From assembly GCF_964355755.1 (NCBI RefSeq), contig NC_092677.1, positions 890,101-954,100 of the forward strand: 64,000 nt of DNA, given 5' to 3'. The translations under genes and the position numbers were made by a program. Origin of the DNA: Antedon mediterranea. Lineage: Eukaryota > Animalia > Echinodermata. The notes beneath the pieces are model-generated. The model made no database searches, had not been told where the DNA came from, and was given only the letters and a program-made list of their open reading frames with translations. This document shows, piece after piece, positions 1 through 57,884 of the stretch. The stretch's first letter is position 1; every line of letters begins with the position of its first letter.

Positions 1-2
1 CT

Positions 3-3000
3 ATGATGTTATGTTCCGCTTCTGTGTTCGATGAAAGCAACTTGGAAAATGTCGATGTTGATGAACCTAGTACGTCTTATCAGTATAAATGTAGTACACG
101 ATTATCTGACAAGAATATTGATTCTAAAGTTAAAGGTCAAAAACATAATAAAGAAACTCATGTCTCATCAAGTAATGGATGGCAAAGTGATAGTGATATT
201 GAAATTGTTAATGTTCAGTATGAAGAAAGACCTGACAAGAATTTTAAATTTATTCCTATCTCAGAAGCACAAAAGAAAAACATGTGTAATGAAGTACGCA
301 TTCATTGTGAACATACCGATATGAATTGTGGTATTAACAGAGCTAGTCAGATTGGACATCCTCTTCAAATTACGAATATTACAGGTGATGGTAATTGTTT
401 TTATCGTGCAATTTCATACATTATTTCTGGGACTGAAGATAATCATTTACTTTTAAGAAGAGCAATTACTAATCATTTATTGGAAACTGATGACTTATTT
501 ATTAATACATTTAGTCACAAATATAGATCAGTTAAGGAATATGTGTTTAAAAAAAGAGTAATGGATAATGGAACGTGGGCATCCAATACTGAAATAAGTG
601 CAATGGCAAATTTGCTTAATACAGATATTTATTCATTTAATGATCAACTTTTGACGTGGCAATTGTTTTCTGCTAAAAAGCCGGGAAGAATAGATGATGT
701 TACAACTGAAAATGGTATATATATTTTGTACACCATGAATGTGCATTTTAATGTAGTGGAATCTGTCAATGTGAGTCAAAATAATGTTCAGGAAACAACA
801 GGACAAGTTGATATGAATGTCACATCGAAGAAACGAAAGAAAACGGGAGAAGAAACTTGGGACACATTTGAAGATATAGAACCAACACACAAACAGAGTA
901 AAACTGTTGAAAGCCCTTGTTCGGAAAGCAGAGTAAAAATATTGAGCGGAAAACGAAAACAATCTTATAGAATTAGAAAAGAAAAAGCAAAGAATCGACA
1001 GAGAAATAAACGGGAAAGAGAAGAAAAAAATAATTCAGAAGAAACAAATGAACTCGGACACAAATATCAAAGTGATTCTGTATACACAGAGGAAAAGAAA
1101 CGCAAAGTAAAAGAGACACAAAAAATAAGATATTGTGATGATGATTATAAATTACAAAAAAGGAAGGAAAACAGAGAAAGACAACGCAAAATGTATAGAT
1201 GTGAACCTGAATATAAAGTTAAGGTACGAAATAAAGCTAAACATCACTACAACCTTGATTTGGATTACCGAACAACCAAAAAAGAAACAATGAAGAGTAG
1301 ATACGACAATGATACAATGTTTAGAAATAAAACTAAACAAAATAATAAACAAAGAAATAAGGAAAGGTATCACAATGATCCACAATTTCGACAAAATTTG
1401 AAGCAAAATTTAGCAAAGAAGTATTGTAATAATTCACATTTCAGAGAAAACATTAACCAAAAATTGACAGAGAAGTATCGGGGGAATTTGAAATTTCGAC
1501 AAAACTTTAAGCAGAAATTGGCAGAGAAGTATCAAAGTAATTTGAAATTTAGACAAAACTGTAAAGAAAAATTTACTGAAAAGTATCGGAGTAATTTGAA
1601 ATTTAGACAAAACCTTAAAGACAAACTGGCAGAAAAGTATCGGAGTAATTTGAAATTTAGACAAAAATGCAAAGACAAATTGGCAGAAAAGTATCTGAGT
1701 AATTTGAAATTTAGACAAAACTGTAAAGAAAAATTTACTGAAAAGTATCGGAGTAATTTGAAATTTAGACAAAACTTTAAAGACAAACTGGCAGAAAAGT
1801 ATCGGAGTAATTTGAAATTTAGACAAAAATGCAAAGACAAATTGGCAGAAAAGTATCGGAGTAATTTAAAATTTAGACAAAAATGTAAAGACAAATTGGT
1901 AGAAAAGTATCGGAGTAATTTGAAATTTAGACAAAACTGTAAGCAGAAATTGGCAGAGAAATATCGAGATAATTTAAAATTTCGTCAAAGATGTAAGCAA
2001 AAGTGTAAGCAAAGATTTACAGAAAAGTATCATGGTGATGAAGGGTTCCGGAAAAAAATCATGAAGAAAAACTTGAAAAATCGGGAAAAAAAAACCACAG
2101 AAAACACTAATTTTGATATTGTTTTAGAAAACTTCAGGAAAACAGTTTCTCGTGGTCCTGAATATGTTTGTTGTATATGCTTTAAATTGTTATTCAAAGA
2201 TCAAGTTATGAAGTGCATCAAAGCTAAATACAAAAATAAGGCTTGTATAAATGAAAAGTATTTGCATATTTGCAATAATGAATGTAATAAACCTTGTCAA
2301 TTTTTCGAATCTCCAAGGTGTCGTTTATGGATTTGTTTCACGTGCCACAGGAAAATGTTAAACGGAAAAGTTCCTGCAGAAGCCAATTCAAACAATTTAC
2401 AACTACACGATATTCCTCCTGAGCTCAGGTGTTTAAATAATTTAGAGCAGCATTTGATTGGATTAAACATTCCTTTTATGAAATTAATGAATTTACCAAA
2501 AGGTGGACAGCATGGAATACATGGACCAGTCGTATGTGTACCTTCAAATACTATTGAAACTGTAAAAATGTTGCCTAGACCAGAGGTTGATGATCAATTA
2601 ATATCTGTAAAATTGAAGCGAAAGTTGTCTTACAAAGGTTATTACAAATATAAATTTGTTAACACTGCCAATGTTATTCAAGCTCTTAGATATTTACAAG
2701 ATCATAACAAGTGCTACTTTGATATAGCTATTAATGAAGAATGGCACAATTATTTATCTGAAGATAACATGGAAAATGAAACTACTAATGAAGATGAAAA
2801 CAATGAAGAAGAAGAAAAAGAAGAAGAAGTAGAAGACCGATTATGTGGTGTTACCTTTGATACAAGTCTTCAACCTGTTGACAGGCGACAAAATTTGGTT
2901 GATGAATATTTTAATGACATAATTTGTTGTGCACCATGTGAAAATAATAGTCCTATTGCATTGTTAAGTAATAAAAGCAATGAAGCAAAATCATTTCCAG

Positions 3001-6000
3001 TGCTATTTCCAACAGGTCAACCGACATTCCATGATACGAGAGATGTTAAAATAACACTTGGACGTTATTTTCATAATAGATTAATGCATATAGATAACAG
3101 GTTTGCACAAAATACGGAATTCATATTTTATGCTCAATCTTTATATGAACTTCAGCAAATTTTATCAAGTATTTCCATTGCATTACGAAAAGGGTCAAGT
3201 AAAAAGGATGATTTTAGCAAAGTTACTGTATCCGATTTAAAAAATGTTACCAAAATTGAGGAGATTTTAAAATCTGATAGGGGTTATAAATTTTTAAAAC
3301 AAATTCGTGGAACTCCACCGTACTGGCAAGCTACACAGAAAGATATAATAGCAATGGTTAGACAGATTGGAAAGCCAACATTCTTTCTTTCATTCTCAAG
3401 TGCTGACTTCCGTTGGAAAGAAATAATGACGACATTGTTAAATCAGTCAGGAGACCAAAGAAACATTGAAGAATTAGAATGGGCAGATAAATGTAATTTG
3501 TTGAAATCAAATCCAGTGACTGTTGCCAGAATGTTTGATAAACGCTTTCATACTTTTTTGAAAAATGTAATTTTGTCTGAAGCACAGCCTATTGGTAAAG
3601 TCGTAGATTATTTTTACCGAATTGAATTTCAAATGAGAGGAAGTCCGCATGTTCATATGTTAGTGTGGGTTGAAAATGCTCCTATTTTTGGTACGGATAA
3701 AGATAAAGATGTTATTAATTTTGTCGATAAATATATTTCTTGTGCTGTGCCATGTGAAACTGTAGATCGTGAACTGAATGAAATTGTTAAAAGTGTGCAA
3801 ATTCACAGTAAAAGACATTCTAAATCATGTAAAAAAAAGGGAACAAATTGCAGATTTAACTTTCCCAGACAACCTTCTGGAAATACATTTGTTATGAGAC
3901 CTACAATTGTGGATAAAGACAATGATGATAATGATGACAATAAACAAGCAATGGAGCTATTAACCTCAGTAAAAGATGCTGTGACTAATGAAGAAACATA
4001 TAAAAATGCAATAGAACTTTTCCAAAGTTTAGGTATTACACAGAGTGCATTTGAGAAAGCAAATAATTGTGTAGCTACTGAGGAAAAAATTGTTATAAAG
4101 AGAAACCCCCAAGATGTGTGGGTAAATCAATATAATCCTTCCTTATTGAGAGCATGGAATGCTAATATGGATATTCAATATATTACAAATGTATATGCAT
4201 GTATAATTTACGTTATAGGATATATGTCAAAATCTGAACGGGAAATGGGTTTACTGTTAAATCATGCAGCATCAGAAGTAAAAGAAGGCAATGAAGATGC
4301 TAGGCAAAGTTTGCGAAAACTTGGTAATGTTTATATGAATAATCGAGAAGTGTCTGCACAAGAAAGTATTTATCGTGTTTGTAGTTTAAGATTAAAAGAA
4401 TGTTCAAGGAAAGTTGAATTTATCCCAGTAGGACCTAATCCTGTCAGAATGAGTTTACCACTAAGTGTAATTAAAAACAAAGCAGATGATGATGTAAGTG
4501 CATGGTTGCCAAATAAGATCGACAAATATAAAGCTCGACCTAACATTTCTGAATTTAATAAAATGTGCCTTGCAAAATTTTGTTCAGAATATAGAATATT
4601 GAGTTCATCAGAAATGAAAGGAAACAAACAAAAAAAGAATGTATTTCAGTTAAAAAAACAGTTGGGATTCATCCAAAAAAGAACACGAACTAGTAATGCT
4701 ATAGTAAGATACCCTCGATTTCCAATGGATACAGCACCTGAGAAATATTTTTTGAGTATACTTCAGTTATTTCTACCATTTCGAAAAGATGAACAGTTAA
4801 AACCTCCAAATTTTGAAACGTATGAACAATTTCATGAGAAAGGATGTGTGAAATTATGTGGCTGTCAATTACAAACGGTAAAGTCAATAGTTCATGGAAA
4901 CATGGAACAATATGAAAAAAGTGCTGATGATGTTGAAGAAGCACAGGAATGTTTATCAAAATTTGGACCACAAGAAGATGCATGGAGTTTATTATGTCCA
5001 GAAAGCGAAAAAGAAAGGTTAGACAACCCAAAGCCAAATGTAGAGGTTGATGATGAAGAAGATGAATTTTTCATTCCAGATTTTGGAATTCAAAAAAATC
5101 ATACATCTAAAGTAGAGTCTAATTCATCTAATATTCCAAGACCAGAATTGAACAAAATGATTCGATCTTTAAATGAAAAACAACAACATATATTTTATAA
5201 GACAAGACAATGGTGTTTAGACAAAGCTAATGGTAAAAAACCTGAAGCATTTTACACTTTCATAACTGGTGGCGCTGGTACAGGAAAAAGTCATTTGGTA
5301 AACTGTATTTATAATGAAGCGACACGTATTCTTGGAAAAATTATGGAAAATCCCGATGATTTGTCAATATTGAAATTAGCTCCTACAGGAATTGCAGCAT
5401 ATAATATTAAAGGCCAAACAATTCATAGCGCTTTGTCTATCCCGATTAATATTTCACTTCCGTATCAACCACTTGGAGAAGAAAAAATAAGTGCACTTCG
5501 TAATAAATTAGGCCAGTTGCAAATTGTTAATATAGATGAAATATCAATGGTAAATCAAAGGTTACTTTGGTATATCCACGGACGATTAAGGCAAATAAAA
5601 CAAGTACGCAACGATAGTCCATTTGGTAACATTTCAATAATTGCTGTTGGTGATTTTTATCAGTTACCCCCGGTTATGGGCAGTTCGTTATACAAAGACA
5701 CATTGGAAAGCTCACTGTGGATAGATAACTTTAAGCAAGTACAGTTAGATCAAATCATGAGGCAAAAAGAAGATAAAGAATTTGCTTTATTGTTAAACAA
5801 ATTGCGTACAAAAGAAAAACATGATTGTTTGTCTGATAACGATTTATTAGTTCTAAAATCACGTGAAACAGGTGAAGAATGTGAAGATGCTGTTCACATT
5901 TACCCACGCAACAAACAAGTTGATGAATGGAATAAAAAAATGTTGCACAAAACCTGTACAGACATTGTATGCATTGAAGCAGAAGATAGTGTAGTAAACG

Positions 6001-7199
6001 CCAAGAAACAGACCAAAAATTGTGACAAACCTCGGAATTCACGTAAAACTAGTTTACTAAATTATTTGTGGATTGCACTTAATGCCAGAGTGATGTTGAT
6101 TAAAAATGTAGATGTTAAAAAAGGCTTAACGAATGGATGTATGGGACATGTTTATGAAATAGTCAAACCCAATAATAACGCCAAACCAGTATCTATTAAA
6201 GTAAAGTTTGATAATAATGACATTGGTATTCAGGCAATTGAAATGTTTAAAGAATCTATGGGGGAAAAATACAGTCGAAAACAATTTCCTCTCAAATTAG
6301 CATATGCATGCACAGTTCATAAAGTGCAAGGAATGACAATGGATAAAGCAGTGGTTTGCCTTAAAGATACTTTTACGCATGGACAAGCATATGTAGGCCT
6401 CAGTCGTGTTACTTCAATATCTGGACTTACTATTGAAAATTTTAAACCTAGTCTGATTTATTGTGATCCAAACATAAAGAAGTGCTTAAATAATATGGAT
6501 TCATACGTACAATGTGATAAACAAGGTCATGATTCGGATTCTAGATTTTCAATAATGTTACATAACATTCAAGGGCTTAAACAACATTTTGTTGATCTTC
6601 AGTATAATGATTTGTTTATGAATTCTAATATACTATGTCTAACTGAAACATGGTTGAACAAGGATGATGATGTTTTTGACGTACGCATTGAGCCGTATAA
6701 ATGTTATCACCAAGCAAGGTATGATTCGTATTCTAATACAAATGATCTCAGTTCCAAAATAAAACATCAGGCTCATGGTGGCGTTGCAGTGTATGTCAAG
6801 AACACGTCTTCAAGCAGATTAAACATATGTAATAATGATATAGAAGCAGTTTCATTTTTAATAACAAGTCCGATTTCTATTGCCGTGTCAGTAATTTATC
6901 GACCCCCAAGTTATGATATTAATCAATTCTGTCAAAATTTGAGAAAATATTTGGAAGAGTTACAAAAAATGAGTACAAAATGTATTGTAATGGGGGATTT
7001 TAATGAAAATCTTTTCAAACAATCTTCCAGAGTGAATAATTTAATGTCAGAGAATGAATACCGACAACATGTTACATGTTCCACCACTGAAAACAATACA
7101 TTGATTGATCATGTCTATAGCAAAGGTCTTGATTCAGTACAGGCTGAAGTAATTCCAATTTATTATAGCTATCATGAAGCCATTCAAATTAAATTTTAA
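3..7199 (+). CDS. Helentron RepHel-endonuclease protein, C-terminal 2398 aa (5'-truncated by the window edge)
   Basis: OTU motif GDGNCFYRAIS; HUH motif RIEFQMRGSPHVHMLVW; catalytic Tyr motif YVIGYMSK; Pif1/SF1 motifs GGAGTGKS, DEISM, GDFYQLPPV, TVHKVQGMT, GQAYVGLSRV; APE/EEP motifs HNIQGL, LTETW, YRPP, GDFN, IDHVY. Matches the C-terminal part of 40734..50168 apart from 4 visible substitutions. Confidence 0.95.
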   Translation: MMLCSASVFDESNLENVDVDEPSTSYQYKCSTRLSDKNIDSKVKGQKHNKETHVSSSNGWQSDSDIEIVNVQYEERPDKNFKFIPISEAQKKNMCNEVRIHCEHTDMNCGINRASQIGHPLQITNITGDGNCFYRAISYIISGTEDNHLLLRRAITNHLLETDDLFINTFSHKYRSVKEYVFKKRVMDNGTWASNTEISAMANLLNTDIYSFNDQLLTWQLFSAKKPGRIDDVTTENGIYILYTMNVHFNVVESVNVSQNNVQETTGQVDMNVTSKKRKKTGEETWDTFEDIEPTHKQSKTVESPCSESRVKILSGKRKQSYRIRKEKAKNRQRNKREREEKNNSEETNELGHKYQSDSVYTEEKKRKVKETQKIRYCDDDYKLQKRKENRERQRKMYRCEPEYKVKVRNKAKHHYNLDLDYRTTKKETMKSRYDNDTMFRNKTKQNNKQRNKERYHNDPQFRQNLKQNLAKKYCNNSHFRENINQKLTEKYRGNLKFRQNFKQKLAEKYQSNLKFRQNCKEKFTEKYRSNLKFRQNLKDKLAEKYRSNLKFRQKCKDKLAEKYLSNLKFRQNCKEKFTEKYRSNLKFRQNFKDKLAEKYRSNLKFRQKCKDKLAEKYRSNLKFRQKCKDKLVEKYRSNLKFRQNCKQKLAEKYRDNLKFRQRCKQKCKQRFTEKYHGDEGFRKKIMKKNLKNREKKTTENTNFDIVLENFRKTVSRGPEYVCCICFKLLFKDQVMKCIKAKYKNKACINEKYLHICNNECNKPCQFFESPRCRLWICFTCHRKMLNGKVPAEANSNNLQLHDIPPELRCLNNLEQHLIGLNIPFMKLMNLPKGGQHGIHGPVVCVPSNTIETVKMLPRPEVDDQLISVKLKRKLSYKGYYKYKFVNTANVIQALRYLQDHNKCYFDIAINEEWHNYLSEDNMENETTNEDENNEEEEKEEEVEDRLCGVTFDTSLQPVDRRQNLVDEYFNDIICCAPCENNSPIALLSNKSNEAKSFPVLFPTGQPTFHDTRDVKITLGRYFHNRLMHIDNRFAQNTEFIFYAQSLYELQQILSSISIALRKGSSKKDDFSKVTVSDLKNVTKIEEILKSDRGYKFLKQIRGTPPYWQATQKDIIAMVRQIGKPTFFLSFSSADFRWKEIMTTLLNQSGDQRNIEELEWADKCNLLKSNPVTVARMFDKRFHTFLKNVILSEAQPIGKVVDYFYRIEFQMRGSPHVHMLVWVENAPIFGTDKDKDVINFVDKYISCAVPCETVDRELNEIVKSVQIHSKRHSKSCKKKGTNCRFNFPRQPSGNTFVMRPTIVDKDNDDNDDNKQAMELLTSVKDAVTNEETYKNAIELFQSLGITQSAFEKANNCVATEEKIVIKRNPQDVWVNQYNPSLLRAWNANMDIQYITNVYACIIYVIGYMSKSEREMGLLLNHAASEVKEGNEDARQSLRKLGNVYMNNREVSAQESIYRVCSLRLKECSRKVEFIPVGPNPVRMSLPLSVIKNKADDDVSAWLPNKIDKYKARPNISEFNKMCLAKFCSEYRILSSSEMKGNKQKKNVFQLKKQLGFIQKRTRTSNAIVRYPRFPMDTAPEKYFLSILQLFLPFRKDEQLKPPNFETYEQFHEKGCVKLCGCQLQTVKSIVHGNMEQYEKSADDVEEAQECLSKFGPQEDAWSLLCPESEKERLDNPKPNVEVDDEEDEFFIPDFGIQKNHTSKVESNSSNIPRPELNKMIRSLNEKQQHIFYKTRQWCLDKANGKKPEAFYTFITGGAGTGKSHLVNCIYNEATRILGKIMENPDDLSILKLAPTGIAAYNIKGQTIHSALSIPINISLPYQPLGEEKISALRNKLGQLQIVNIDEISMVNQRLLWYIHGRLRQIKQVRNDSPFGNISIIAVGDFYQLPPVMGSSLYKDTLESSLWIDNFKQVQLDQIMRQKEDKEFALLLNKLRTKEKHDCLSDNDLLVLKSRETGEECEDAVHIYPRNKQVDEWNKKMLHKTCTDIVCIEAEDSVVNAKKQTKNCDKPRNSRKTSLLNYLWIALNARVMLIKNVDVKKGLTNGCMGHVYEIVKPNNNAKPVSIKVKFDNNDIGIQAIEMFKESMGEKYSRKQFPLKLAYACTVHKVQGMTMDKAVVCLKDTFTHGQAYVGLSRVTSISGLTIENFKPSLIYCDPNIKKCLNNMDSYVQCDKQGHDSDSRFSIMLHNIQGLKQHFVDLQYNDLFMNSNILCLTETWLNKDDDVFDVRIEPYKCYHQARYDSYSNTNDLSSKIKHQAHGGVAVYVKNTSSSRLNICNNDIEAVSFLITSPISIAVSVIYRPPSYDINQFCQNLRKYLEELQKMSTKCIVMGDFNENLFKQSSRVNNLMSENEYRQHVTCSTTENNTLIDHVYSKGLDSVQAEVIPIYYSYHEAIQIKF
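1360..2030 (+). repeat. In-frame 45-bp minisatellite encoding a basic 15-aa repeat (EKYRSNLKFRQNCKxKL-like)
   Basis: Repeated gaaaagtatcggagtaatttgaaatttagacaaaa with 45-bp period; repeat is visible in the translation. Confidence 0.92.
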
Positions 7200-7341
7200 T
7201 TGTAGCAATGGTTTTTAAGTATTTCTGTGAATAGAATTCAGAATAGAATACTATAAAAACTTTTTAAGAATTGAAAATAGAACTGGATACAAATCAAGAA
7301 AAAAAACAATTTATAAAAACAAGCTGAAAATCATTATGACT

Positions 7342-8485
7342 CTCTATGAACGAGGGGCAGCGAGTAATCTGTAACTTCAACCCATGTCATTCTCCTGTAT
7401 AGGAGAAACAGTATCTGGTGACTAAACACATTTTAATCTTGTTTTTATGTGAGTTATATTATTAAAGATATTGTTCTGAATTTGAATATGCAATGTTGCA
7501 ATCTGTGCACATAATAATTGTTCAATATTTACCGGTATTCAAATAATGTTAAAAATAAAAAGTTATATTTCACAGAAGAAGAAAATACGTTTTGTTTTAT
7601 ACGATTACCAATACTTCATTAGGTCTATACATACTTTCATTTGTATAATTGTTTTTGTATATTTTTTTTGTTATCTATCCAGGTCCACATGAAATTACTA
7701 ATACAGTAATTTACTCATTTGGAAGAATAATCAATTATTATCTATGCAAGAGGGGCAGTGAATAATCTGTAACTTCAACACATGTCATTCTCCTGTATAG
7801 TGGAAACAATATCTGGTGAGTAAACACATTTTAATCTTGTTTTTATGTGAGTTATATAATATTGTTCTGAATTTGAATATGCAATATTTCAATATCTACC
7901 GGTATTCAAGTAATGTTAAAAATAAACAGTTACATTTTACAGAAGAAGAAAATATGTTTTGTTTTATACGATTACCAATACTTTATTAGGTCTACACATA
8001 CTTTCAGTTGTATAATTGCTTTTAATATTTTTTTTTCTATCTATCCAGGTCCACATGAAATTACTAATACAGTAATTTATTCATTTGCAAGAATAATCAA
8101 TTTATTATCTATGCACGAGGGGCAGCGAATAATGTGTAACTTCAACCATGTCATTCTCCTGTGTAGGAGAAACAATATCTGGTGAGTAAACACATTTTAA
8201 TCTTGTTTTTATATGAGTTATATTATTATAAATATTGTTCTGAATTTGAATATGCAATGTTGCAATCTGTGTATATAATAATCTTTCAATATCTACCGGT
8301 TTTCAAGTAATGTTAAAAATAAAAATTACATTTTACAGAAGAAGAAAATACGTTTTGTTTTATACGATTACCAATACTTTATTAGGTCTACACATACTTT
8401 CAGTTTTGTTTTCTATCTATGCAGGTCCACATGAAATTCCTAATACAGCAATTTACAAGAATTTTGCAAGAATAATCAATTTATT
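7342..8485 (+). repeat. Three diverged ~370-400-bp tandem repeats downstream of the RepHel stop, with splice-site-flanked micro-exon-like segments
   Basis: ctatg..cgaggggcagcga..aatctgtaacttcaac recurs near 7344, 7742 and 8109. Examples: tagGAGAAACAATATCTGgtgagt (8167-8181) and ccagGTCCACATGAAATTACTAATACAgtaatt (7683-7705). Confidence 0.85.
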
Positions 8486-9000
8486 TTGTTTTGATTTTTA
8501 GGTGTACAATGGAATGGTTTCATCTCTTTAATTAATAATGGGATCCGAATGTTTAGGCAGTCACTAATGCAGTCGTTCGCTCTTTAATAACATTTGTCTA
8601 AACGCGGCAAATTATTAAATTAATAATCATATTAATAGTTATTGTTAAAAAATAACAATCTTCTATAAATAGATCAATAAATATGCGTTTAATGAATCCT
8701 CAACTAACAAATTACCATGTAAATAATGTACTAATATGTAAATTTACTGATTACCAAAATGTTGATGAACTACTGTATAGTATAAACAGCCTACTATATT
8801 TTGACAATTTTGTACCATTTGCAATAACCAATGAAAGCTTATATAAATACCGGTACACATTTTATACAGATTTGTGTGTTTTCTTCAATTTGTTTGAAAT
8901 AAAAGATTATTTTTAACAGTTATGGTGTGATAATATTAGCTTTATCAGAAATATTATATCTATTGGAGCAAGTTTCACTGGTAACTGAGATAATTGATCA

Positions 9001-9143
9001 GATCAAATCACAGAGCAGAGAAGACAAAAAATTGTTATTGTTATTATTATTCACACATGTAACTGGTCAGTAATCCATAAGATCAAATCACAGAGCAGAG
9101 GAGACAACAAATTGTTATTATTATTATTCACACATGTAACCGG
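9001..9143. repeat. 80-bp-period tandem duplication
   Basis: gatcaaatcacagagcagag..ttcacacatgtaac at 9001 and 9081; also in copy 2 at 51971 and 52051. Confidence 0.85.
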
Positions 9144-9149
9144 TTTTAG

Positions 9150-10520: not shown

Positions 10521-11689
10521 AAAATAAACAAATTTGATTCAGGTTTTCCGCAGCGCAAACACCACATGCACGTCATACGTTAGAATATTGCACAGAGAAA
10601 AAACGATTATGCCATTGAAAAAAATGTTAGTGTGCCCTCTATTTTGTGTCACGTCTAAGTATATACGGTATACACTATATACTGTATACGTACTACATAC
10701 AGTGCAGAAAAGGTGAAAAGAAGTGACCAAAGTTATTTACGCTTTTGAACATGATGACGTCATAACAATTTTAAAAATGGTAAATCATGCGAAAGATAAT
10801 TGATTGACCTAGACAAAATAAAAAAAATGAGGGAAATGGAATACGGATAAGTGGAGATGCGCTCTATTAAATGTGATGAGCTATGACGAAAGAGACAAAA
10901 ATCCTATATTTGATATTCGAGTGGCCATACAATGACGTCACAATGTCCGGTTAGCCATATCGATGCATGATTTGATATTTACAACTCATCTACTTCCAGA
11001 ATCTGAAATTTTAAAAATTTTCACCTCGGAGTTTAGAATCTATGACTTTTTAAAAAAAGGCATAATTTTCACGAATTTTTGAACTTTTTCAACAAAAACG
11101 CGCGAAAATTGTTCAATTCTACGTGCTCGTATGACGTGATTTTAAGTTGAAATTGTTTGAAAGTTTGTAAAATTACTAGAAAAGGCTGAAAAAACAAAAA
11201 TCAAGCAAAAAAAACATGTTTTTGCCTTACGTGCGCACGCGCGCGTAAAAAAATTGCGCACGCGTGGGAATTTTTGAAATGCTCAAAATGACATGAAACG
11301 CGTAGAAAGTTGATTAGAAATGGATATTTCGCAATTTGAAATTTTAAACGCGCGTGCGCGCGTAACTTTATGTCAAACATGCCATTTTTAATCCATAGAA
11401 AGTTTGCGCATGATATAACTTAAATTTTCACGAAGTTTCAATAGAAAATGACTTTTGGTTTTCAATCTATGATCAATCATTGAAATTCATAAAATCGCGC
11501 GTAACTTACGCTGCGCGACTCCAAATTCATAAAAAAAAGTTTCGTGCACATCTACAGCTACAGGGCAATCTTATGACAAAGTTATAGAATCTTATGTTGA
11601 CTAGAATTAGAGATACGCTGCGAACAAAAATCGTGGAAAGAAAGAAGAAAATAGAAAAAAAAAGAGAAAAAAAATAAAAAAAATAAAAA

Positions 11690-11838: not shown

Positions 11839-11840
11839 AA

Positions 11841-49700: not shown

Positions 49701-50168
49701 TCTAATACAAATGATCTCAGTTCCAAAATAAAACATCAGGCTCATGGTGGCGTTGCAGTGTATGTCAAGAACACGTCTTCAAGCAGATTAAACATATGTA
49801 ATAATGATATAGAAGCAGTTTCATTTTTAATAACAAGTCCGATTTCTATTGCCGTGTCAGTAATTTATCGACCCCCAAGTTATGATATTAATCAATTCTG
49901 TCAAAATTTGAGAAAATATTTGGAAGAGTTACAAAAAATGAGTACAAAATGTATTGTAATGGGGGATTTTAATGAAAATCTTTTCAAACAATCTTCCAGA
50001 GTGAATAATTTAATGTCAGAGAATGAATACCGACAACATGTTACATGTTCCACCACTGAAAACAATACATTGATTGATCATGTCTATAGCAAAGGTCTTG
50101 ATTCAGTACAGGCTGAAGTAATTCCAATTTATTATAGCTATCATGAAGCCATTCAAATTAAATTTTAA
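40734..50168 (+). CDS. Full-length Helentron transposase, 3144 aa: hydrophobic N-terminus, PHD finger, herpes-tegument-like cysteine protease, OTU protease, 15-aa repeats, Cys-rich region, HUH Rep, Pif1 helicase, APE endonuclease
   Basis: Single uninterrupted ORF. PHD-like C4HC3 (CDFC..CITCDCC..FHVKC..WICSMC, ~41100-41246); QGNFNQG..GKQCVANSL..FDPH (~42350-42960); OTU GDGNCFYRAIS (~43346); HUH ~46611; Walker A ~48237; APE from ~49515. Domain calls are by motif recognition, not by search. Confidence 0.95.
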   Translation: MDMEFITLVGIFLLIIFTMIIYLCKNVNKEVTSKKQIFVNTTGNVNNGVMDKTAEFKIVVNDILDLLDECCSTENVKDDRNDDTGNVNCEFMKDTTEFKGIIDDIINILSYGTEVTSEFDDTCDFCNIEVKVDDNCITCDCCSQYFHVKCVRDVFEDKLCNSRVIWICSMCGNNNFVDNMFGEIGIPCHFNRYTILEPDESVTSDFPELMKNKEKRCNNAKLKCQQTGSEDLLGSDWIRVRSKKRTDNRKKRCKNRGNKKRRKRVINGISIEPGVKYIGKGVKDFYERQNNNKMEWNMNTNTYREYNKENGKTNILGNSQTIIDDSGRPMCDDLKNTKVTHGIQQQSGGGSKRLRNNKGRFVKTKKIDNKKAQGNVNLKNDCDTMERFGKDIKNMGNNDNSETKTDEDFKMKCTVENDNTATDDAKAQNNSKMNDRSRIIDSNGTDHKNQTCASCEFEENEVLIIDDGCKKAVTEKLRSHTKPKCDQHTIDPDIEVLRKNNFSEELIIDDVPKQKNTRKRQKTQSINELQVYNSNENITVAQGNFNQGNYRFGFASGKQCVANSLVAILYSTKRNGNEFYTKDLDTILTLGNELYRYIQKDSTMHEDLLMISELPKELDILDNTFVISPKESVFGIIDGNLEFMAEYGALSLNQALEQELHQHDAFFMNFNRSTFSIIKRVNGFLIFDPHARDRFGCVSEHGKSILIYSPSWQGVYDYCIRLARSMNCNLHETEFELTGVNIENKSMMLCSASVFDESNLENVDVDEPSTSYQYKCSTRLSDKNIDSKVKGQKHNKETHVSSSNGWQSDSDIEIVNVQYEERPDKNFKFIPISEAQKKNMCNEVRIHCEHTDMNCGINRASQIGHPLQITNITGDGNCFYRAISYIISGTEDNHLLLRRAITNHLLETDDLFINTFSHKYRSVKEYVFKKRVMDNGTWASNTEISAMANLLNTDIYSFNDQLLTWQLFSAKKPGRIDDVTTENGIYILYTMNVHFNVVESVNVSQNNVQETTGQVDMNVTSKKRKKTGEETWDTFEDIEPTHKQSKTVESPCSESRVKILSGKRKQSYRIRKEKAKNRQRNKREREEKNNSEETNELGHKYQSDSVYTEEKKRKVKETQKIRYCDDDYKLQKRKENRERQRKMYRCEPEYKVKVRNKAKHHYNLDLDYRTTKKETMKSRYDNDTMFRNKTKQNNKQRNKERYHNDPQFRQNLKQNLAKKYCNNSHFRENINQKLTEKYRGNLKFRQNFKQKLAEKYQSNLKFRQNCKEKFTEKYRSNLKFRQNLKDKLAEKYRSNLKFRQKCKDKLAEKYLSNLKFRQNCKEKFTEKYRSNLKFRQNFKDKLAEKYRSNLKFRQKCKDKLAEKYRSNLKFRQKCKDKLVEKYRSNLKFRQNCKQKLAEKYRDNLKFRQRCKQKCKQRFTEKYHGDEGFRKKIMKKNLKNREKKTTENTNFDIVLENFRKTVSRGPEYVCCICFKLLFKDQVMKCIKAKYKNKACINEKYLHICNNECNKPCQFFESPRCRLWICFTCHRKMLNGKVPAEANSNNLQLHDIPPELRCLNNLEQHLIGLNIPFMKLMNLPKGGQHGIHGPVVCVPSNTIETVKMLPRPEVDDQLISVKLKRKLSYKGYYKYKFVNTANVIQALRYLQDHNKCYFDIAINEEWHNYLSEDNMENETTNEDENNEEEEKEEEVEDRLCGVTFDTSLQPVDRRQNLVDEYFNDIICCAPCENNSPIALLSNKSNEAKSFPVLFPTGQPTFHDTRDVKITLGRYFHNRLMHIDNRFAQNTEFIFYAQSLYELQQILSSISIALRKGSRKKDDFSKVTVSDLKNVTKIEEILKSDRGYKFLKQIRGTPPYWQATQKDIIAMVRQIGKPTFFLSFSSADFRWKEIMTTLLNQSGDQRNIEELEWADKCNLLKSNPVTVARMFDKRFHTFLKNVILSEAQPIGKVVDYFYRIEFQMRGSPHVHMLVWVENAPIFGTDKDKDVINFVDKYISCAVPCETVDRELNEIVKSVQIHSKRHSKSCKKKGTNCRFNFPRQPSGNTFVMRPTIVDKDNDDNDDNKQAMELLTSVKDAVTNEETYKNAIELFQSLGITQSAFEKANNCVATEEKIVIKRNPQDVWVNQYNPSLLRAWNANMDIQYITNVYACIIYVIGYMSKSEREMGLLLNHAASEVKEGNEDARQSLRKLGNVYMNNREVSAQESIYRVCSLRLKECSRKVEFIPVGPNPVRMSLPLSVIKNKADDDVSAWLPNKIDKYKARPNISEFNKMCLAKFCSEYRILSSSEMKGNKQKKNVFQLKKQLGFIQKRTRTSNAIVRYPRFPMDTAPEKYFLSILQLFLPFRKDEQLKPPNFETYEQFHEKGCVKLCGCQLQTVKSIVHGNMEQYEKSADDVEEAQECLSKFGPQEDAWSLLCPESEKERLDNPKPNVEVDDEEDEFFIPDFGIQKNHTSKVESNSSNIPRPELNKMIRSLNEKQQHIFYKTRQWCLDKANGKKPEAFYTFITGGAGTGKSHLVNCIYNEATRILGKIMENPDDLSILKLAPTGIAAYNIKGQTIHSALSIPINISLPYQPLGEEKISALRNKLGQLQIVIIDEISMVNQRLLWYIHGRLRQIKQVRNDSPFGNISIIAVGDFYQLPPVMGSSLYKDTLESSLWIDNFKQVQLDQIMRQKEDKEFALLLNKLRTKEKHDCLSDNDLLVLKSRETGEECEDAVHIYPRNKQVDEWNKKMLHKTCTDIVCIEAEDSVVNANKQTKNCDKPRNSRKTSLLNYLWIALNARVMLIKNVDVKKGLTNGCMGHVYEIVKPNNNAKPVSIKVKFDNNDIGIQAIEMFKESMGEKYSRKQFPLKLAYACTVHKVQGMTMDKAVVCLKDTFTHGQAYVGLSRVTSISGLTIENFKPSLIYCDPNIKKCLNNMDSYVQCDKQGHDSDSRFSIMLHNIQGLKQHFVDLQCNDLFMNSNILCLTETWLNKDDDVFDVRIEPYKCYHQARYDSYSNTNDLSSKIKHQAHGGVAVYVKNTSSSRLNICNNDIEAVSFLITSPISIAVSVIYRPPSYDINQFCQNLRKYLEELQKMSTKCIVMGDFNENLFKQSSRVNNLMSENEYRQHVTCSTTENNTLIDHVYSKGLDSVQAEVIPIYYSYHEAIQIKF
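44329..45000 (+). repeat. In-frame 45-bp minisatellite (copy 2)
   Basis: Same as 1360-2030. Confidence 0.92.
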
Positions 50169-50311
50169 TTGTAGCAATGGTTTTTAAGTATTTCTGTGAA
50201 TAGAATTCAGAATAGAATACTATAAAAACTTTTTAAGAATTGAAAATAGAACTGGATACAAATCAAGAAAAAAAAACAATTTATAAAAACAAGCTGAAAA
50301 TCATTATGACT

Positions 50312-51455
50312 CTCTATGAACGAGGGGCAGCGAGTAATCTGTAACTTCAACCCATGTCATTCTCCTGTATAGGAGAAACAGTATCTGGTGACTAAACACA
50401 TTTTAATCTTGTTTTTATGTGAGTTATATTATTAAAGATATTGTTCTGAATTTGAATATGCAATGTTGCAATCTGTGCACATAATAATTGTTCAATATTT
50501 ACCGGTATTCAAATAATGTTAAAAATAAAAAGTTATATTTCACAGAAGAAGAAAATACGTTTTGTTTTATACGATTACCAATACTTCATTAGGTCTATAC
50601 ATACTTTCATTTGTATAATTGTTTTTGTATATTTTTTTTGTTATCTATCCAGGTCCACATGAAATTACTAATACAGTAATTTACTCATTTGGAAGAATAA
50701 TCAATTATTATCTATGCAAGAGGGGCAGTGAATAATCTGTAACTTCAACACATGTCATTCTCCTGTATAGTGGAAACAATATCTGGTGAGTAAACACATT
50801 TTAATCTTGTTTTTATGTGAGTTATATAATATTGTTCTGAATTTGAATATGCAATATTTCAATATCTACCGGTATTCAAGTAATGTTAAAAATAAACAGT
50901 TACATTTTACAGAAGAAGAAAATATGTTTTGTTTTATACGATTACCAATACTTTATTAGGTCTACACATACTTTCAGTTGTATAATTGCTTTTAATATTT
51001 TTTTTTCTATCTATCCAGGTCCACATGAAATTACTAATACAGTAATTTATTCATTTGCAAGAATAATCAATTTATTATCTATGCACGAGGGGCAGCGAAT
51101 AATATGTAACTTCAACCATGTCATTCTCCTGTATAGGAGAAACAATATCTGGTGAGTAAACACATTTTAATCTTGTTTTTATATGAGTTATATTATTATA
51201 AATATTGTTCTGAATTTGAATATGCAATGTTGCAATCTGTGTATATAATAATCTTTCAATATCTACCGGTTTTCAAGTAATGTTAAAAATAAAAATTACA
51301 TTTTACAGAAGAAGAAAATACGTTTTGTTTTATACGATTACCAATACTTTATTAGGTCTACACATACTTTCAGTTTTGTTTTCTATCTATGCAGGTCCAC
51401 ATGAAATTCCTAATACAGCAATTTACAAGAATTTTGCAAGAATAATCAATTTATT
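50312..51455 (+). repeat. Three ~370-400-bp repeats downstream of the ORF (copy 2)
   Basis: Near-identical to 7342-8485. Confidence 0.85.
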
Positions 51456-54400
51456 TTGTTTTGATTTTTAGGTGTACAATGGAATGGTTTCATCTCTTTA
51501 ATTAATAATGGGATCCGAATGTTTAGGCAGTCACTAATGCAGTCGTTCGCTCTTTAATAACATTTGTCTAAACGCGGCAAATTATTAAATTAATAATCAT
51601 ATTAATAGTTATTGTTAAAAAATAACAATCTTCTATAAATAGATCAATAAATATGCGTTTAATGAATCCTCAACTAACAAATTACCATGTAAATAATGTA
51701 CTAATATGTAAATTTACTGATTACCAAAATGTTGATGAACTACTGTATAGTATAAACAGCCTACTATATTTTGACAATTTTGTACCATTTGCAATAACCA
51801 ATGAAAGCTTATATAAATACCGGTACACATTTTATACAGATTTGTGTGTTTTCTTCAATTTGTTTGAAATAAAAGATTATTTTTAACAGTTATGGTGTGA
51901 TAATATTAGCTTTATCAGAAATATTATATCTATTGGAGCAAGTTTCACTGGTAACTGAGATAATTGATCAGATCAAATCACAGAGCAGAGAAGACAAAAA
52001 ATTGTTATTGTTATTATTATTCACACATGTAACTGGTCAGTAATCCATAAGATCAAATCACAGAGCAGAGGAGACAACAAATTGTTATTATTATTATTCA
52101 CACATGTAACCGGTTTTAGTGTAGTATATTATGGTGTTTAGAACTGAAATTACGGGAGAAAACATGTTTTGATGTCATCAAAATGAAACATAAAAGTATG
52201 TCCATTTTCGGGAAATAATTCATCTCAACGATAACATAATTAAATAATATAATATAAAAAATATAATGAAATTTGGCACGTACAACTGAGATGCGTAATA
52301 TGCCAAAAAACAAATAAAAATCCTACCTTTCCTATTACTGGCCATAACATGACCTCATAGCATAACCCGATAGCATGACCTCGCAGCATCCGATAGGAAA
52401 ACTTTTAAAAACGATTTTAATGAATTGTGCCTATTTTGTGTCATACGTCTAGTATATACTAATACATTGAAGCATAGAAAAAATTACGAGACCCATATTT
52501 TTAACATGATGACGTCATCAAAATAAAACATGAAGGTAACAATTTTAGAGAATAATTATCTAAATAATTATATTCTTAGAAGTTGAAGAAATTTGGGCAC
52601 GCTGGCAATTTTTAAGCCATCTTTTGAGTGACATAAATATGTGTACAGTGCTGACAGCAAATTACACAGAATACACTGTTACATGTTATATAATTTAATT
52701 ATCTAAATAATTACATTAATACAAATTTGAAGAAATTTGGGAACGTTAACCTGAGATGCGCTCTATAAACACAATTAATTTTTACGAAAGAGATGAAAAT
52801 CTGACTTTTTAAATTCAACTGACCATATGATGACGTCATGAAATCAGATAGACAAAATTTGTATATGACTTCATATCTACAATTCAACAATTACCATAAG
52901 TTTTGATCACGTGGGTCACTTTGTTAACTCATGTGTGAAAAAAATTGATTTGTCAAGAACATTAAAACGCATTAGCGCGATGCGCTCTATTAACTGGGAT
53001 TAACTAATACAAAATATAAAAAAATCTATTTTTAAAATTTGAGTGGCCAATATGGTGACGTCAGAACATCTTTTAGGTACAAATTGTACATTAATTGATA
53101 ACTACAACTCATTAGCTTCTATAATACATTTAAAAAAATGGTGTAACCTGCCATCCTGAGGAGCTAGAACTGAATCAAAATAGGTATATTTTTGAAAAAA
53201 ATTGTATTATATTACCCATTCTTTAGCAAACGATTTCTAAAGTTTAACATGCACGTGCATCGTTAATTTGCAATAAAAATTCATGAAAATGAATGAAATC
53301 GTGAACGTAGGCCTATGACCAACAAAAATCAATTGCAAAACACATTTTTCTACGCTTTGTACGAGCTGTGCGCACAAGTGCGTGCGCAAAACGCAAACAA
53401 TTTAGACAGTTTTGAAATGCTCAAATGACCTGACATGTACGCAAATTAAATAGAAATTAATTTGGCGTATTTTTAAATTTCACTCGTAAAAAATAAACAA
53501 ATTTGATTCAGGTTTTCCGCAGCGCAAACACCACATGCACGTCATACGTTAGAATATTGCACAGAGAAAAAACGATTATGCCATTGAAAAAAATGTTAGT
53601 GTGCCCTCTATTTTGTGTCACGTCTAAGTATATACGGTATACACTATATACTGTATACGTACTACATACAGTGCAGAAAAGGTGAAAAGAAGTGACCAAA
53701 GTTATTTACGCTTTTGAACATGATGACGTCATAACAATTTTAAAAATGGTAAATCATGCGAAAGATAATTGATTGACCTAGACAAAATAAAAAAAATGAG
53801 GGAAATGGAATACGGATAAGTGGAGATGCGCTCTATTAAATGTGATGAGCTATGACGAAAGAGACAAAAATCCTATATTTGATATTCGAGTGGCCATACG
53901 ATAACGTCACAATGTCCGGTTAGCCATATCGATGCATGATTTGATATTTACAACTCATCTACTTCCAGAATCTGAAATTTTAAAAATTTTCACCTCGGAG
54001 TTTAGAATCTATGACTTTTTAAAAAAAGGCATAATTTTCACGAATTTTTGAACTTTTTCAACAAAAACGCGCGAAAATTGTTCAATTCTACGTGCTCGTA
54101 TGACGTGATTTTAAGTTGAAATTGTTTGAAAGTTTGTAAAATTACTAGAAAAGGCTGAAAAAACAAAAATCAAGCAAAAAAAACATGTTTTTGCCTTACG
54201 TGCGCACGCGCGCGTAAAAAAATTGCGCACGCGTGGGAATTTTTGAAATGCTCAAAATGACATGAAACGCGTAGAAAGTTGATTAGAAATGGATATTTCG
54301 CAATTTGAAATTTTAAACGCGCGTGCGCGCGTAACTTTATGTCAAACATGCCATTTTTAATCCATAGAAAGTTTGCGCATGATATAACTTAAATTTTCAC

Positions 54401-54658
54401 GAAGTTTCAATAGAAAATGACTTTTGGTTTTCAATCTATGATCAATCATTGAAATTCATAAAATCGCGCGTAACTTACGCTGCGCGACTCCAAATTCATA
54501 AAAAAAAGTTTCTTGCACATCTACAGCTACAGGGCAATCTTATGACAAAGTTATAGAATCTTATGTTGACTAGAATTAGAGATACGCTGCGAACAAAAAT
54601 CGTGGAAAGAAAGAAGAAAATAGAAAAAAAAAGAGAAAAAAAATAAAAAAAATAAAAA

Positions 54659-54882
54659 AGATCCTGACAATAACAAGGGGTTATCCGCCAAGTGCGGATA
54701 ACCAAAAAAAAAAAAAAAAAAAAAAAAGATCCTGACAATAACAAGAGGTTATCCGCCAAGTGCGGATAACCAAAAAAAAAAGATCCTGACAATAACAAGA
54801 GGTTATCCGCCAAGTGCGGATAACCAAAAAAAAAAAAAGATCCTGACAATAACAAGGGGTTATCCGCCAAGTGCGGATAACC
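54659..54882. repeat. Stack of four Helentron right termini separated by A-runs
   Basis: Terminal palindromes end at 54703, 54771, 54825 and 54882. Confidence 0.93.
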
Positions 54883-55057
54883 AACTAGATCTAAACTCGT
54901 CACTTGAGGACGAGTTTGGTTATCCGCCCGCAACAAAACGTATCTTGCGTATTCAAGTACTTCTAAGTTATGACTTTTCCCAAAAAAAGTAGGCTATTCA
55001 AAATTAAAACTGCCCCTTCAGTGTAATAACCAAATAAACCCTTTTAATTAATTGTTT

Positions 55058-55129
55058 CCCCGTGACGGGACTCGAACCCGGTACCTCTTATACCAAAGTC
55101 GGTTGCACTACACATCGAGCCATATGAGC
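55058..55129 (-). pseudogene. tRNA-derived (tRNA-Pro TGG-like) segment with Pol III A/B boxes inside a non-autonomous Helentron
   Basis: Minus strand GCTCATATGGCTCGATGTGTAGTGCAACCGACTTTGGTATAAGAGGTACCGGGTTCGAGTCCCG: A-box-like TGGCTCGATGTG, T-arm CGGG-TTCGAGT-CCCG; acceptor and anticodon stems pair poorly. Confidence 0.65.
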
Positions 55130-56625
55130 ACCTGCTGAAGAAAATCTGAAGAAAGAGTACTCGTTCATTCGGTATGTCGTGAACCCCGTCGATGCAAGTT
55201 GATTATTACATATCGAACTTAAATCATAATTTTTACTATGATGAAATCTTCACAAATTTTAAACAGTGACATATTATGAAAGTGCATACTTTCAAGTTTT
55301 ATATATTAACATGTAAAGAAAAAAGATAAACGTTATGTTTATTGTTTTACTCTTTGAATATGTTTATGTTTGTTTGATGATAATTTTTTTCAAAAATTAC
55401 ATTTAATATGCAAATAATGTAGCCATCAAACACTTTTTAACATTCAAGACTATAATAAATTAGACCTATGATTAATACACTACAAGAAAATAAAATAAAA
55501 AATGGGGGTAACCTAGCATTCTGATGAACTGTTTCGTTTTTAAAAGTAGACATATTTTGGAACATTTTCACAATTTGTTGACGTTTTCGTGCGCAACCTG
55601 TCATGTTTAACGTGCTCGTAGAACGCCATTTCAAGTTGAAAAGTGAATAAAATAACGTAAAATTGTTAACCGAAGATTTAAAAACACAAATCGTGTAAAA
55701 GAAATGCTCATACCTATTCCCTGCGCCGTGCGCGCGTAAAAATGTGCGCACCAGTGGTAATTTTTTAAACGCTTAAAATGACCTGAATCGTGCTCTAATT
55801 TAATCAGAAATTGATTTGAAGCATTTTAAAATTTCAAACGCCATTTACGCGCGCACTTTCTAATGTTACAAATTGCGGTAGCGTTAAAAAAAGTTAACTA
55901 TTGATGTGAAGCAAATGTGGCTGAAAATGACGTTAAAAATATTCATTTGTTTCGAAGTTATAACCGATTTAAGATTTTCAGAAAATCACGCGTAACTTAC
56001 GCTACGCGGCTCTGACATCGTAAAAAAGCTTGGCCGGACAACTTCAGTAAAATGTCTAAATGCTGAACAAGTTACAACATATTATGTTTACACGTTGAAG
56101 AGAAACAGCGTGCACAAAATAAGAAGAGTAAAATATTTCAAACGCAATTTACGCGAAAACTTTCTAGTCTCCAAAAATTTGTTAAACATTCCAAAAGTTA
56201 GCCATTGATCTGAAGAAAACGTGGCTGAAAATTTCGTTAAAAAATATTTATCGGTTTCGAAGTTATGACCGATTTAAGATTTTCAGAAAATCGCGCGTGA
56301 CTTACGCTACGCGGATCTGACAGCGTCCAAAAGCTTGGCAGAACATCTTCAGTTAAATGTCTAAATGTTGACCAAGTTACAACATGTTATATTAATACGT
56401 TGAAGAGAAAACGCGTGCACAAAATCTGAGAAAGAAAGAAGAATAATAAAACTAGAACTTAAACTCGTCACTTGAGGACGAGTTTGGTTATCCGCCCGCC
56501 ACAAAACGTATCTTGCGTATTCAAGTACTTCTCAGTTATGACTTTTCCAAAAAAAGTAGCCTATTCAAAAGTAAAACTGCCCGTTCGGTGTAATAACCAT
56601 TTAAATCCTGTTATTTAATTACTTT

Positions 56626-56696
56626 CCCGTGATGGGATTCGATCCCGGTACCTCTGATACCAAAGCCGGTGGCACTACACATCGAGCCATATGAGC
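56626..56696 (-). pseudogene. Second tRNA-derived segment
   Basis: Homolog of 55058-55129 with B box mutated to GGATCGAATCCC. Confidence 0.55.
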
Positions 56697-57836
56697 ACCT
56701 GCTGAAGAGAATCCGAAGAAAGTTAACTCGTCCATTCGGTATGTCGTGAACCACTCGATGCAGATAGATTATTACTTACCAAACTAAATCATAATTTTCA
56801 CTATGATGAAATCTTCACAAATTTTAACCAGTGACATATTATGAAAGTGCATACTTTTAAGTTTTATATATTAACATGTGAAGAAAAAAGATAAACGTTA
56901 TGTTTATTGTTTTGCTCTTTGAATATGTTATTGTTTGTTTGATGATAAAAATTTCGAAAATTATATTTAATATGCAAATAATGTAGCCATCAAACACGTT
57001 TTAACATTCAACACTATAATAAATCAGACCTATGATTCATACACTGCAATAAAATAAAATAAAAAATAGGGGTAACCTTGCATTCTGATGAACTGTATCA
57101 TTTTTAAAAGTATACATATTTTGCAACATTTTCACAATTTGTGAACATTTTACGTGCGCAACCAGTCATGTTTAACGTGCTCGTAGAACGCCATTTGAAG
57201 TTGAAAAGTGAATGAAATAACGTAAAATTGTTAACCGAAGATTGAAAAACACAAATCGTGCAAAAGAAATGCTCATACGTGTTTCCTGCACCGTGCGCGC
57301 GTAAAAATGTGCGCACCTGGTGGCAATTTTTTAAACGCTTAAAATGACCTGAATCGTGCTCTAATTTAATCAGAAATTGATTTGGAGCATTTTAAAATTT
57401 CAAACGCCGTTTACTCGCGCACTTTCCAATGTTACAAATTTCGGTAGCGATAAAAAAGTTAGCAATTGATGTGAAGCAAACGTGGCTCAAAATTACGTTA
57501 AAAAATATTCATCTGTTTCGAAGTTATGATCAACTTAGGATTTTCTGAAAATCGCGCGTGACTTACGCTACGCGGCTCTGCCAGCGTCCAAAAGCTTGGC
57601 TGCACATCTTCAGCTAAATGTCTAAATGTTTACCAAGTTACAACATGTTATGTTAACAGGTTGCAGAGAAAAGCTGAACACAAAAATCGGCGGAAATAGA
57701 GAAGAATAATAAAAAAAAAGTAACACTACAATTCCAAGGGCTTATCCGCTTGAGGCGGATAACCAAAAAAAAAAAAAAAAAGGTAACACTACAATAACAA
57801 GGGCTTATCCGCTTGAGGCGGATAACCAATAAATAA

Positions 57837-57884
57837 AGATTTTGACAGAATCAAGAGGTTATATGCATATCATGCATATAACCT
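57837..57884. mobile_element. Orphan right terminus of a fourth Helentron family
   Basis: agattttgacagaatcaag-AGGTTATATGCAT-ATC-ATGCATATAACCT aligns with agatcctgacaataacaagaggttatccgc..gcggataacc; perfect 13-bp stem at 57856-57884. Confidence 0.8.

Follow-up and report, generated by a model that had tools for sequence, protein, structure and literature searches.

A gap-free array of co-oriented Helentrons and HINEs in the feather star Antedon mediterranea that probably grew by insertion beside resident 5′ ends

How tens of kilobases of whole transposons come to stand end to end, all pointing the same way, is the question raised by a 64,000-nucleotide stretch of Antedon mediterranea DNA (the window; RefSeq assembly GCF_964355755.1, contig NC_092677.1, forward-strand positions 890,101 to 954,100). 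Positions 1..57884 of the window are tiled without gaps by co-oriented copies of Helentrons and of their non-coding derivatives, HINEs. The array comprises 22 elements, namely 2 coding Helentrons and 20 non-coding HINEs (17 of family A, 1 of family C, and 2 of family B), and carries 8 extra 5′ ends; its left end lies beyond the start of the window, so that 57.9 kb is a minimum length. No DNA separates adjoining units, which bears out the inventory of an initial annotation of this DNA: two autonomous units, 20 non-autonomous units, and one foreign terminus, in a single orientation and with nothing in between. The chain probably grew copy by copy, every newcomer likely entering at a T|T step next to the 5′ hairpin of an element already in place.

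Read on the minus strand, a complete unit starts with TT, a 10-bp hairpin (the “head,” the outer arm of which is the 5′ subterminal inverted repeat, or subTIR), and a T-rich tract, and closes with the 3′ subTIR, an 8-bp stem-loop, and CTAG. The 21 left ends in the window are the 3′ ends of elements on the minus strand, each consisting of CTAG, the 8-bp stem-loop, and GGTTATCCGC. They are located at 11841, 12982, 14133, 15280, 16433, 17647, 18872, 20097, 21327, 22480, 23695, 24919, and 26139 (first run of family A), 27364 (family C), 28951, 30104, 31259, and 32471 (second run of family A), 33752 (autonomous copy 2), and 54885 and 56452 (family B). The 22nd element, autonomous copy 1, is cut by the window start and so has no left end in view. 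There are also 22 heads, at the right-hand side of the units, the last being a foreign head at 57857-57883; 14 of them are joined to a body, and the remaining 8, here called orphans, each stand in a stack behind another head. The subTIRs are 10 to 12 bp long, the 3′ one lying 32 to 34 bases from the element end in all 21 cases, and the hairpins are supported by folding (z scores of −4.7 to −9.4 on 5 of 5 junction stretches). On the element strand CTAG is followed by T at all 21 ends, and the heads begin with TT. Positions 1..57884 contain no minus-strand self-matches; all 9 inverted matches of the window lie beyond 58600.

The junctions carry most of the argument. At 13 of the 21, the CTAG end directly follows a head, giving the arrangement GGATAACC-AA-CTAG, in which complete units were initially described as abutting. 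That description does not extend to the other 8, where the preceding unit lacks its 5′ end: 5 fall in the A-tract of a headless unit (A-runs of 1, 10, 5, 8, and 4), and 3 share one common site, the preceding headless unit ending in AAATAAATA. Two spots are used, one directly outside the hairpin (the 13 junctions between head-to-tail neighbors) and the other in the T-rich tract 22 to 41 bases inside it (5 headless units, 8 orphan heads, and the nests described below). None of the 21 junctions lies more than about 100 bases from a 5′ end. Head zones of that width hold only 681 of the 9304 AA steps of the array (7%) and 39 of the 209 in one unit; of 265 A-runs of ≥6, 229 lie outside the head zones, none of them with an element end, and none of the 6435 opposite-strand TT steps is used. 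Units that are only 66 to 80% alike meet exactly at the A|C, C|A, and A|B junctions. Where two units stand head to tail, base pairing is possible between the 3′ subTIR of one and the 5′ subTIR of the other, and an 11-bp stem was predicted in 2 of the 4 such junctions folded. Such a paired stem is the structure expected of a circle joint, and these junctions may serve as both origin and target.

When the three AAATAAATA units are set aside, each of the other five headless units finds an orphan head to close on, in the order of nested brackets, and no unit stays open. The cleanest case is the family B nest (54885..57827, minus strand), where a headless unit, B1 (54885-56451), is followed by a complete one, B2 (56452-57764), and then by an orphan head of B type (57765-57827), which departs at several bases from the head attached to B2. 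The second nest (28951..33751, minus strand; bracket 28951-33749) consists of the headless A unit at 28951, the headless unit at 30104, the complete units at 31259 and 32471, and an orphan head at 33683-33749 of the same variant as the head of unit 32471; the right ends of units 28951 and 32471 are 98.8% identical. The remaining brackets form three outer shells, from 11841, 12982, and 14133 to 54882, 54825, and 54771, respectively, and are weaker, similar head stacks trailing both coding copies. Insertion may be at T|T without target duplication, the bracket pairs behaving as empty sites internal to the array. The shells open with three headless family A HINEs (11841..15279, minus strand), in each of which the unit that follows interrupts the A-tract. 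Two orphan heads (11735..11838, minus strand; A-runs of 11 and 5) are stacked behind copy 1, and three A-type orphan heads (54704..54882, minus strand; A-runs of 24, 10, and 13) behind copy 2.

Could such a pattern arise with no recognition of resident elements at all? A preference for T-rich targets is established (Thomas et al. 2014, PMC4067079), and newcomers might simply pile up in a harmless region where the longest T-tracts happen to adjoin heads. The A-rich flanks of solitary-looking ends elsewhere, the 31 of 75 A-runs of ≥8 that fall in head zones, and the array flank, itself transposon DNA, are compatible with such passive nesting. It is nevertheless very unlikely to be the explanation: 13 of the 21 junctions use a bare TT between head and CTAG and not a tract, the other 44 of the 75 long A-runs and all other-strand T-runs are unused, and about 33 kb of AT-rich coding-element DNA contain no element end.

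Contigs of seven sequencing runs, the best at 0.56 of words, place the array in a wider population of copies. Three runs (X4, X5, and X6) come from one sample, possibly the source of the window, and are therefore not independent, whereas X1 is a second organism; none of the contig pieces listed spans a single unit. In X4, 15,919 contigs lie on one A unit, at identities from 99% to under 90% (mapping to unit 22480 excluded its head end, 23612-23694, as repeat). Family A is thus large and as diverse as the array. Among the sites listed, there are 20 at which at least 75% of the X4 contig depth disagrees with unit 22480; at all 20 the majority letter is also that of most array units, and array letters follow the X4 pool with a rho of 0.65 over 40 listed of 368 rows, these 40 being the tool's selection and the pool possibly consisting largely of such arrays itself. 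Depth continues across the head-to-tail junction, dipping to about 65% of its peak in X4 and 45% in X5. A crude conversion gives joined-end shares of 0.47, 0.27, and 0.21 in X4 to X6 and 0.84 in X1, to be taken as a hint only, as copy number cannot be read from summed depth and the likeness cut-offs of the two inputs differed. The second organism has the same family A ends, and a 58-base X1 contig (depth 84.8) matches the head-to-tail junction without a difference, with 17 bases on one side, under the 31-base bridging rule. A ends also occur in unrelated A-rich flanks, before CTAG in at least 34, 26, and 28 contigs of X4, X5, and X6 and behind the head in at least 40, 25, and 27, respectively.

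The most obvious competing explanation is local amplification, in which a rolling-circle concatemer or unequal exchange would have multiplied a few founders that later diverged and were shuffled, the head stacks being short tandem duplications of 5′ ends. One orientation and exact junctions would follow automatically, and multi-5′-end Helitron arrays of plants have been ascribed to rolling-circle amplification (Xiong et al. 2016, as cited in PMC12628747 and PMC5148889). The array itself offers two adjacent pairs of units that share long tracts at 98 to 99%, units 21327 and 30104 (97.5% alike), a breakpoint that recurs three times, heads at 33616-33751 that are 100% identical, and coding copies that are 99.9% identical. 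The order of the units speaks against it. The 17 A units are 85.6 to 97.5% identical in pairwise comparisons (mean, 89.8%), adjacent ones averaging 90.5% versus 89.8% overall (permutation p about 0.05; Mantel p 0.09). Identity at lags 2 to 9 is 89.0 to 90.3%, and there is neither block duplication nor periodicity over lags 1 to 9 (89.0 to 90.5%). These values rule out a concatemer and leave little local kinship; they agree with the initial annotation, which had argued against one rolling-circle concatemer or satellite amplification, and speak against duplication in positional order. All 8 near-identical pairs of ends (≥96.5%) have unlike neighbors (87.7 to 92.4% in 5 pairs, the other 3 adjoining another family or a coding element), and in none of the 8 does the near-identical tract cross a unit border. 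Similarity across junctions is in fact negative (rho, −0.42; permutation P of 0.001 on the low side, 0.999 of permutations being as high or higher). These unlike neighbors and the negative correlation are the opposite of what block duplication and circle recombination predict. Furthermore, alleles of the array track the genome-wide pool, three subfamilies and a 21-kb element are interleaved, and headless units are left unexplained by local amplification, which is accordingly judged unlikely. A tree of the units, which omitted unit 15280 (included in the distances) and has 6 of 16 forks open, is unreliable owing to the mosaic nature of the units. The negative correlation means that, among the family A units at 11841-33682, similar right ends tend to precede dissimilar left ends; it comes from one of several tests run.

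Circle recombination, the other process addressed by these comparisons, would have brought free HINE circles into residents by homologous recombination, one exact junction per event, with no choice of target by the transposase. Joined-end circles are documented (PMC4778049, PMC5148889), and their recombination would account for the exactness of the junctions, the uniform orientation, the mosaic bodies, and a unit content that mirrors the genome-wide pool. However, the right and left ends meeting at a junction should then come from a single molecule, and that coherence is absent. Circle recombination also cannot yield pairs of headless units and orphan heads, nor exact junctions of units 66 to 80% alike whose bodies are not chimeric with their neighbors, and there is little probability that it built the array.

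Insertion beside resident heads can be described in terms of what is reported for related elements, in which a 5′ nick is followed by strand displacement to the 3′ hairpin and circles with joined ends are active donors: one strand, from the 5′ end through to the 3′ CTAG, is peeled off by the HUH-helicase transposase, which then closes it into a circle (PMC4778049, PMC5148889). Self-insertion near 5′ ends has a precedent (PMC5148889). In the proposed scheme, the transposase would dock on the 10-bp subTIR core that is common to A, B, C, and the coding copies (a predicted binding site) and would nick the target near the resident head, on the strand of that head (a predicted cleavage). A nick on that strand would fix the orientation of all newcomers. 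The incoming element would then be joined at the nearest usable T|T on the strand, outside the hairpin or 22 to 41 bases inside it, and each arrival would add a new head and a new T-tract, so that targets multiply and growth feeds itself. The shuffling of unit bodies by recombination is seen directly in the sequence.

Several observations weigh against this scheme in its pure form. The cutting distance inside the head ranges from 22 to 41 bases and so shows no particular match to the 32-base spacing at the 3′ end, and Helraiser, the one Helitron tested, showed no local hopping according to the available text of PMC4778049. The A units are recombinant mosaics (incompatibility rises from 0.18 for near to 0.46 for far sites, a trend matched by 0 of 2000 permutations), with 15 long near-identical tracts among 19 rows; the tracts of 483 and 701 columns at 98 to 99% identity in two adjacent pairs indicate that local exchange occurred. 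Counting the three AAATAAATA units as opened leaves three units unclosed; their common breakpoint and lack of an orphan head mean that the junctions are not all independent. Look-alike head stacks follow both of the 99.9% identical coding copies, and head-head stacks reach depths of 2907 and 1792 in X4, compared with about 200 to 310 for single contigs (roughly 6 to 10 times as deep), which is what whole-composite movement of the kind shown in Fusarium (PMC5148889) would give. The stacks may therefore move together with the element, in which case chance may account for 3 of the 5 bracket matches. Of the six A-type orphans, 4 carry a variant found in only 1 of 12 attached heads (p 0.02), a bias that random nesting does not predict. 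Finally, solitary-looking ends exist elsewhere (the at least 34 and at least 40 X4 contigs mentioned above), and a few CTAG ends join inside unit bodies elsewhere, at single-contig depth.

It appears that copying sometimes took in a whole composite, of several heads or of two units, at once. The explanations are not mutually exclusive: recombination and some composite copying have clearly acted on top of insertion. The initial annotation had proposed a self-targeting landing site that grew by serial insertion. The position of all 21 junctions at or just inside 5′ ends agrees with targeted growth, and the bracket-matched nesting adds further support, but a dedicated “landing site” is an overstatement in view of the dozens of contigs with ends in unrelated flanks, and the growth was not purely serial, the units being mosaic and some junctions copied. 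A more far-reaching and distinctly tentative proposal is that the transposase treats the resident 5′ hairpin, and above all the chromosomal CTAG|TT junction that mimics the circle joint, as an attachment site. Self-targeting would then be a main route of spread, a large share of the ends would lie in mixed arrays in this species and in the second organism, and sister families would share the site through the 10-bp core.

A candidate source of the activity is present on site. Autonomous copy 2 (33752..54705, minus strand) is complete, about 21 kb long, and has a single open frame of 3145 amino acids (40731..50168, plus strand). The protein contains Herpes_teg_N (PF04843), OTU (PF02338), DUF6570 (PF20209), Rep (PF14214; E value, 3e-37), PIF1 helicase (PF05970; E value, 2e-28), and C-terminal apurinic-type endonuclease (PF03372) domains, all above the Pfam cut-offs. 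The HUH motif and the two tyrosines of Rep are present and match those of homologs; OTU, DUF6570, and Herpes_teg_N serve as HLE2 markers (PMC11417382). A search with residues 1750-2900 returned Antedon mediterranea proteins as the best matches (81 to 85% identity over the whole region, 92 to 93% over parts), followed by unnamed, sea urchin, mollusc, and fish proteins among the best 120 of 401 matches; all of these 120 contain PF14214 and PF05970, and most contain the HLE2 marker PF20209. Residues of about 124-172, near the N terminus, resemble by eye a cysteine-rich PHD-like finger, with no Pfam match at an E value of 0.01. Copy 1 (1..11736; minus strand by its termini, own head at 11710-11734) extends with its 3′ part outside the window, and its RepHel-EN frame (3..7199, plus strand) is open over the 2398 visible amino acids, with no stop. 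Compared with positions 42970-54705 of copy 2, it shows 9 substitutions and 2 one-base gaps in 11,737 columns (99.9% identity), and the proteins differ at 4 amino acids, including residue 2590, an asparagine in copy 1 and an isoleucine in copy 2, just before the Walker B acids of the helicase. The coding element is also rich in repeats. Copy 2 carries a 343-bp tandem array of 10.7 copies upstream of the open frame (35409..39076); further repeats are a 90-bp array of 4 copies (39813-40176), an in-frame 54-bp repeat of 11 copies encoding an 18-residue basic unit (44353-44962), and, by eye, three repeats of roughly 370 bp after the stop (about 7340-8470).

The 11.7-kb near-identical pair is also the chief place where part of the structure might have been duplicated by the assembly, given its 99.9% identity and the fact that no contig among those listed spans the structure. 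The two copies have different head stacks and different neighbors, however, the 20 small units are all distinct, and the junction type recurs in the contigs of the runs, making an assembly artifact extremely improbable.

The subfamilies that meet at these junctions are related. A family A HINE (1.14 to 1.23 kb, plus any stacked head) corresponds to the first 42 bases (97.6% identical to copy 2) and the last 1.2 kb (89.7%) of the coding element. These units have the hallmarks of HINEs: they are non-coding, share both ends with a coding partner, and occur in high copy number. Family C is 77% identical to A over 1033 columns and 80% identical to the autonomous arm; over aligned parts, A and C are 77 to 80% and A and B 66 to 68% identical. 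The 10-bp subTIR core is common to A, the autonomous copies, B, and C, one base short of the 11 identical subTIR bases that define a single Helentron family (PMC4067079). To judge from these sequences, A, B, C, and the coding copies are best regarded as close sister families, neither one family nor four unrelated ones. Where the initial annotation had four mixed terminal families, subfamilies are indeed mixed at exact junctions, but only the foreign head D has a different core. Besides the units already mentioned, the array contains a block of ten family A HINEs (15280..27363, minus strand), 8 of them complete and 2 headless (15280 and 21327, ending in AAATAAATA), and the complete 1587-bp family C HINE (27364..28950, minus strand), which has its own hairpin variants and a 14-bp head stem. 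Both B units contain a tRNA-like segment (55059-55125 and about 56626-56690, minus strand), which includes a word that, by eye, resembles a B-box; ARAGORN called no tRNA in the B units, and the segment is possibly the captured head of a short interspersed nuclear element.

Head D (57828..57884, minus strand), with a changed yet paired 13-bp stem, forms the right border of the array. Its inner flank opens (57828-57835) with 8 AT-rich bases that also terminate the three headless units sharing a breakpoint (16421-16432, 22468-22479, and 31247-31258), a weak hint that they may once have borne a D-like head. A 227-codon stop-free frame of a long interspersed nuclear element (LINE)-type endonuclease (57883..58566, minus strand) ends exactly at head D; its match to PF03372 (E value, 0.0015) is below the family cut-off. 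The whole array probably sits inside a LINE, the remainder of which should lie past the left end of the array. Farther into the flank are a 3.3-kb foldback-like element (58872-62217), with inverted arms of ∼850 bp that are 90% identical and contain 41-bp and 128-bp subrepeats, and two related GC-rich segments of ∼100 bases in otherwise AT-rich DNA (63080-63480), probably a small repeat element.

By every feature assessed (domains, subTIRs, hairpins, and shared ends), the array consists of Helentrons and HINEs. Tandem Helitron insertions have reportedly been described in Drosophila as well (Dias et al. 2016). Among characterized systems, the closest are Helentron/HINE/DINE-1 elements (PMC4067079) and subgroup b of HLE2 (Li et al. 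2024, PMC11417382), which likewise combine RepHel with endonuclease, OTU, DUF6570, and Herpes_teg_N domains in one frame. Shared structural features are subTIRs with a 5′ inverted repeat, a 3′ stem-loop, an apparent TT target without duplication, and non-coding derivatives with both ends. Points of difference are a 3′ CTAG like that of proto-Helentron, a 10-bp subTIR common to all members, and an open frame that runs opposite to the termini, as in Helentron-Da-40 and “HLE2-reverse” (PMC4067079, PMC11417382). Whole elements chained and nested over more than 57 kb are absent from the Helentron descriptions in the available text of PMC4067079 and PMC11417382. The FoHeli elements of Fusarium (Chellapan et al. 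2016, PMC5148889) similarly have short 5′ ends repeated behind one body and an insertion 2 bp from the 5′ end of another copy, and the same report gives three tandem copies in Metarhizium, a self-insertion model, and composites that move as a unit. These are a handful of cases with two or three elements, in contrast to 22 elements of several subfamilies with both halves of nests in view. In plant centromeres, Helitrons form tandem arrays (Xiong et al. 2016, cited in PMC12628747 and PMC5148889) that are likewise co-oriented and have surplus 5′ ends, but these are ascribed to rolling-circle amplification of truncated copies, whereas most units described here are complete, differ from one another by about 10%, and belong to several subfamilies. 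Dimers of transposable elements formed by double insertion (McGurk and Barbash 2018, PMC5932611) resemble the array in that reuse of a preferred site builds tandems that can seed satellites; in that Drosophila case, insertion relies on a host target and its duplication, while here the site is within the element and nothing appears to be duplicated. The available text of six other reports (PMC7492417, PMC2374699, PMC6213432, PMC13085455, 10.64898/2026.09.17.752431, and PMC11934779) covers internal repeats, TT preference, chromosome-end Helitrons, or nested long terminal repeat clusters, and no such arrays. No description of long, mixed, nested arrays of whole HINEs with their coding partner was found in the literature searched, most subscription papers and supplements lying outside that search. 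Work on fungi and plants has already reported self-insertion, stacked 5′ ends, and tandem Helitrons; what this array adds is its scale, its mixture of subfamilies at exact junctions, and the presence of an intact transposase on site.

Blocks of this kind will be mislabeled in genome annotation as 1.2-kb satellites. Target choice and entry by Helitron-type circles are open questions, and laboratory transposition is not known to have been achieved for any Helentron that carries an endonuclease; the complete 21-kb element, whose frame of 3145 amino acids is unbroken and which has a 99.9% identical twin, makes target choice directly assayable. Satellite-like arrays of whole transposons are usually credited to concatemers or unequal exchange, and this array points to a third route, repeated insertion of an element beside its own end.

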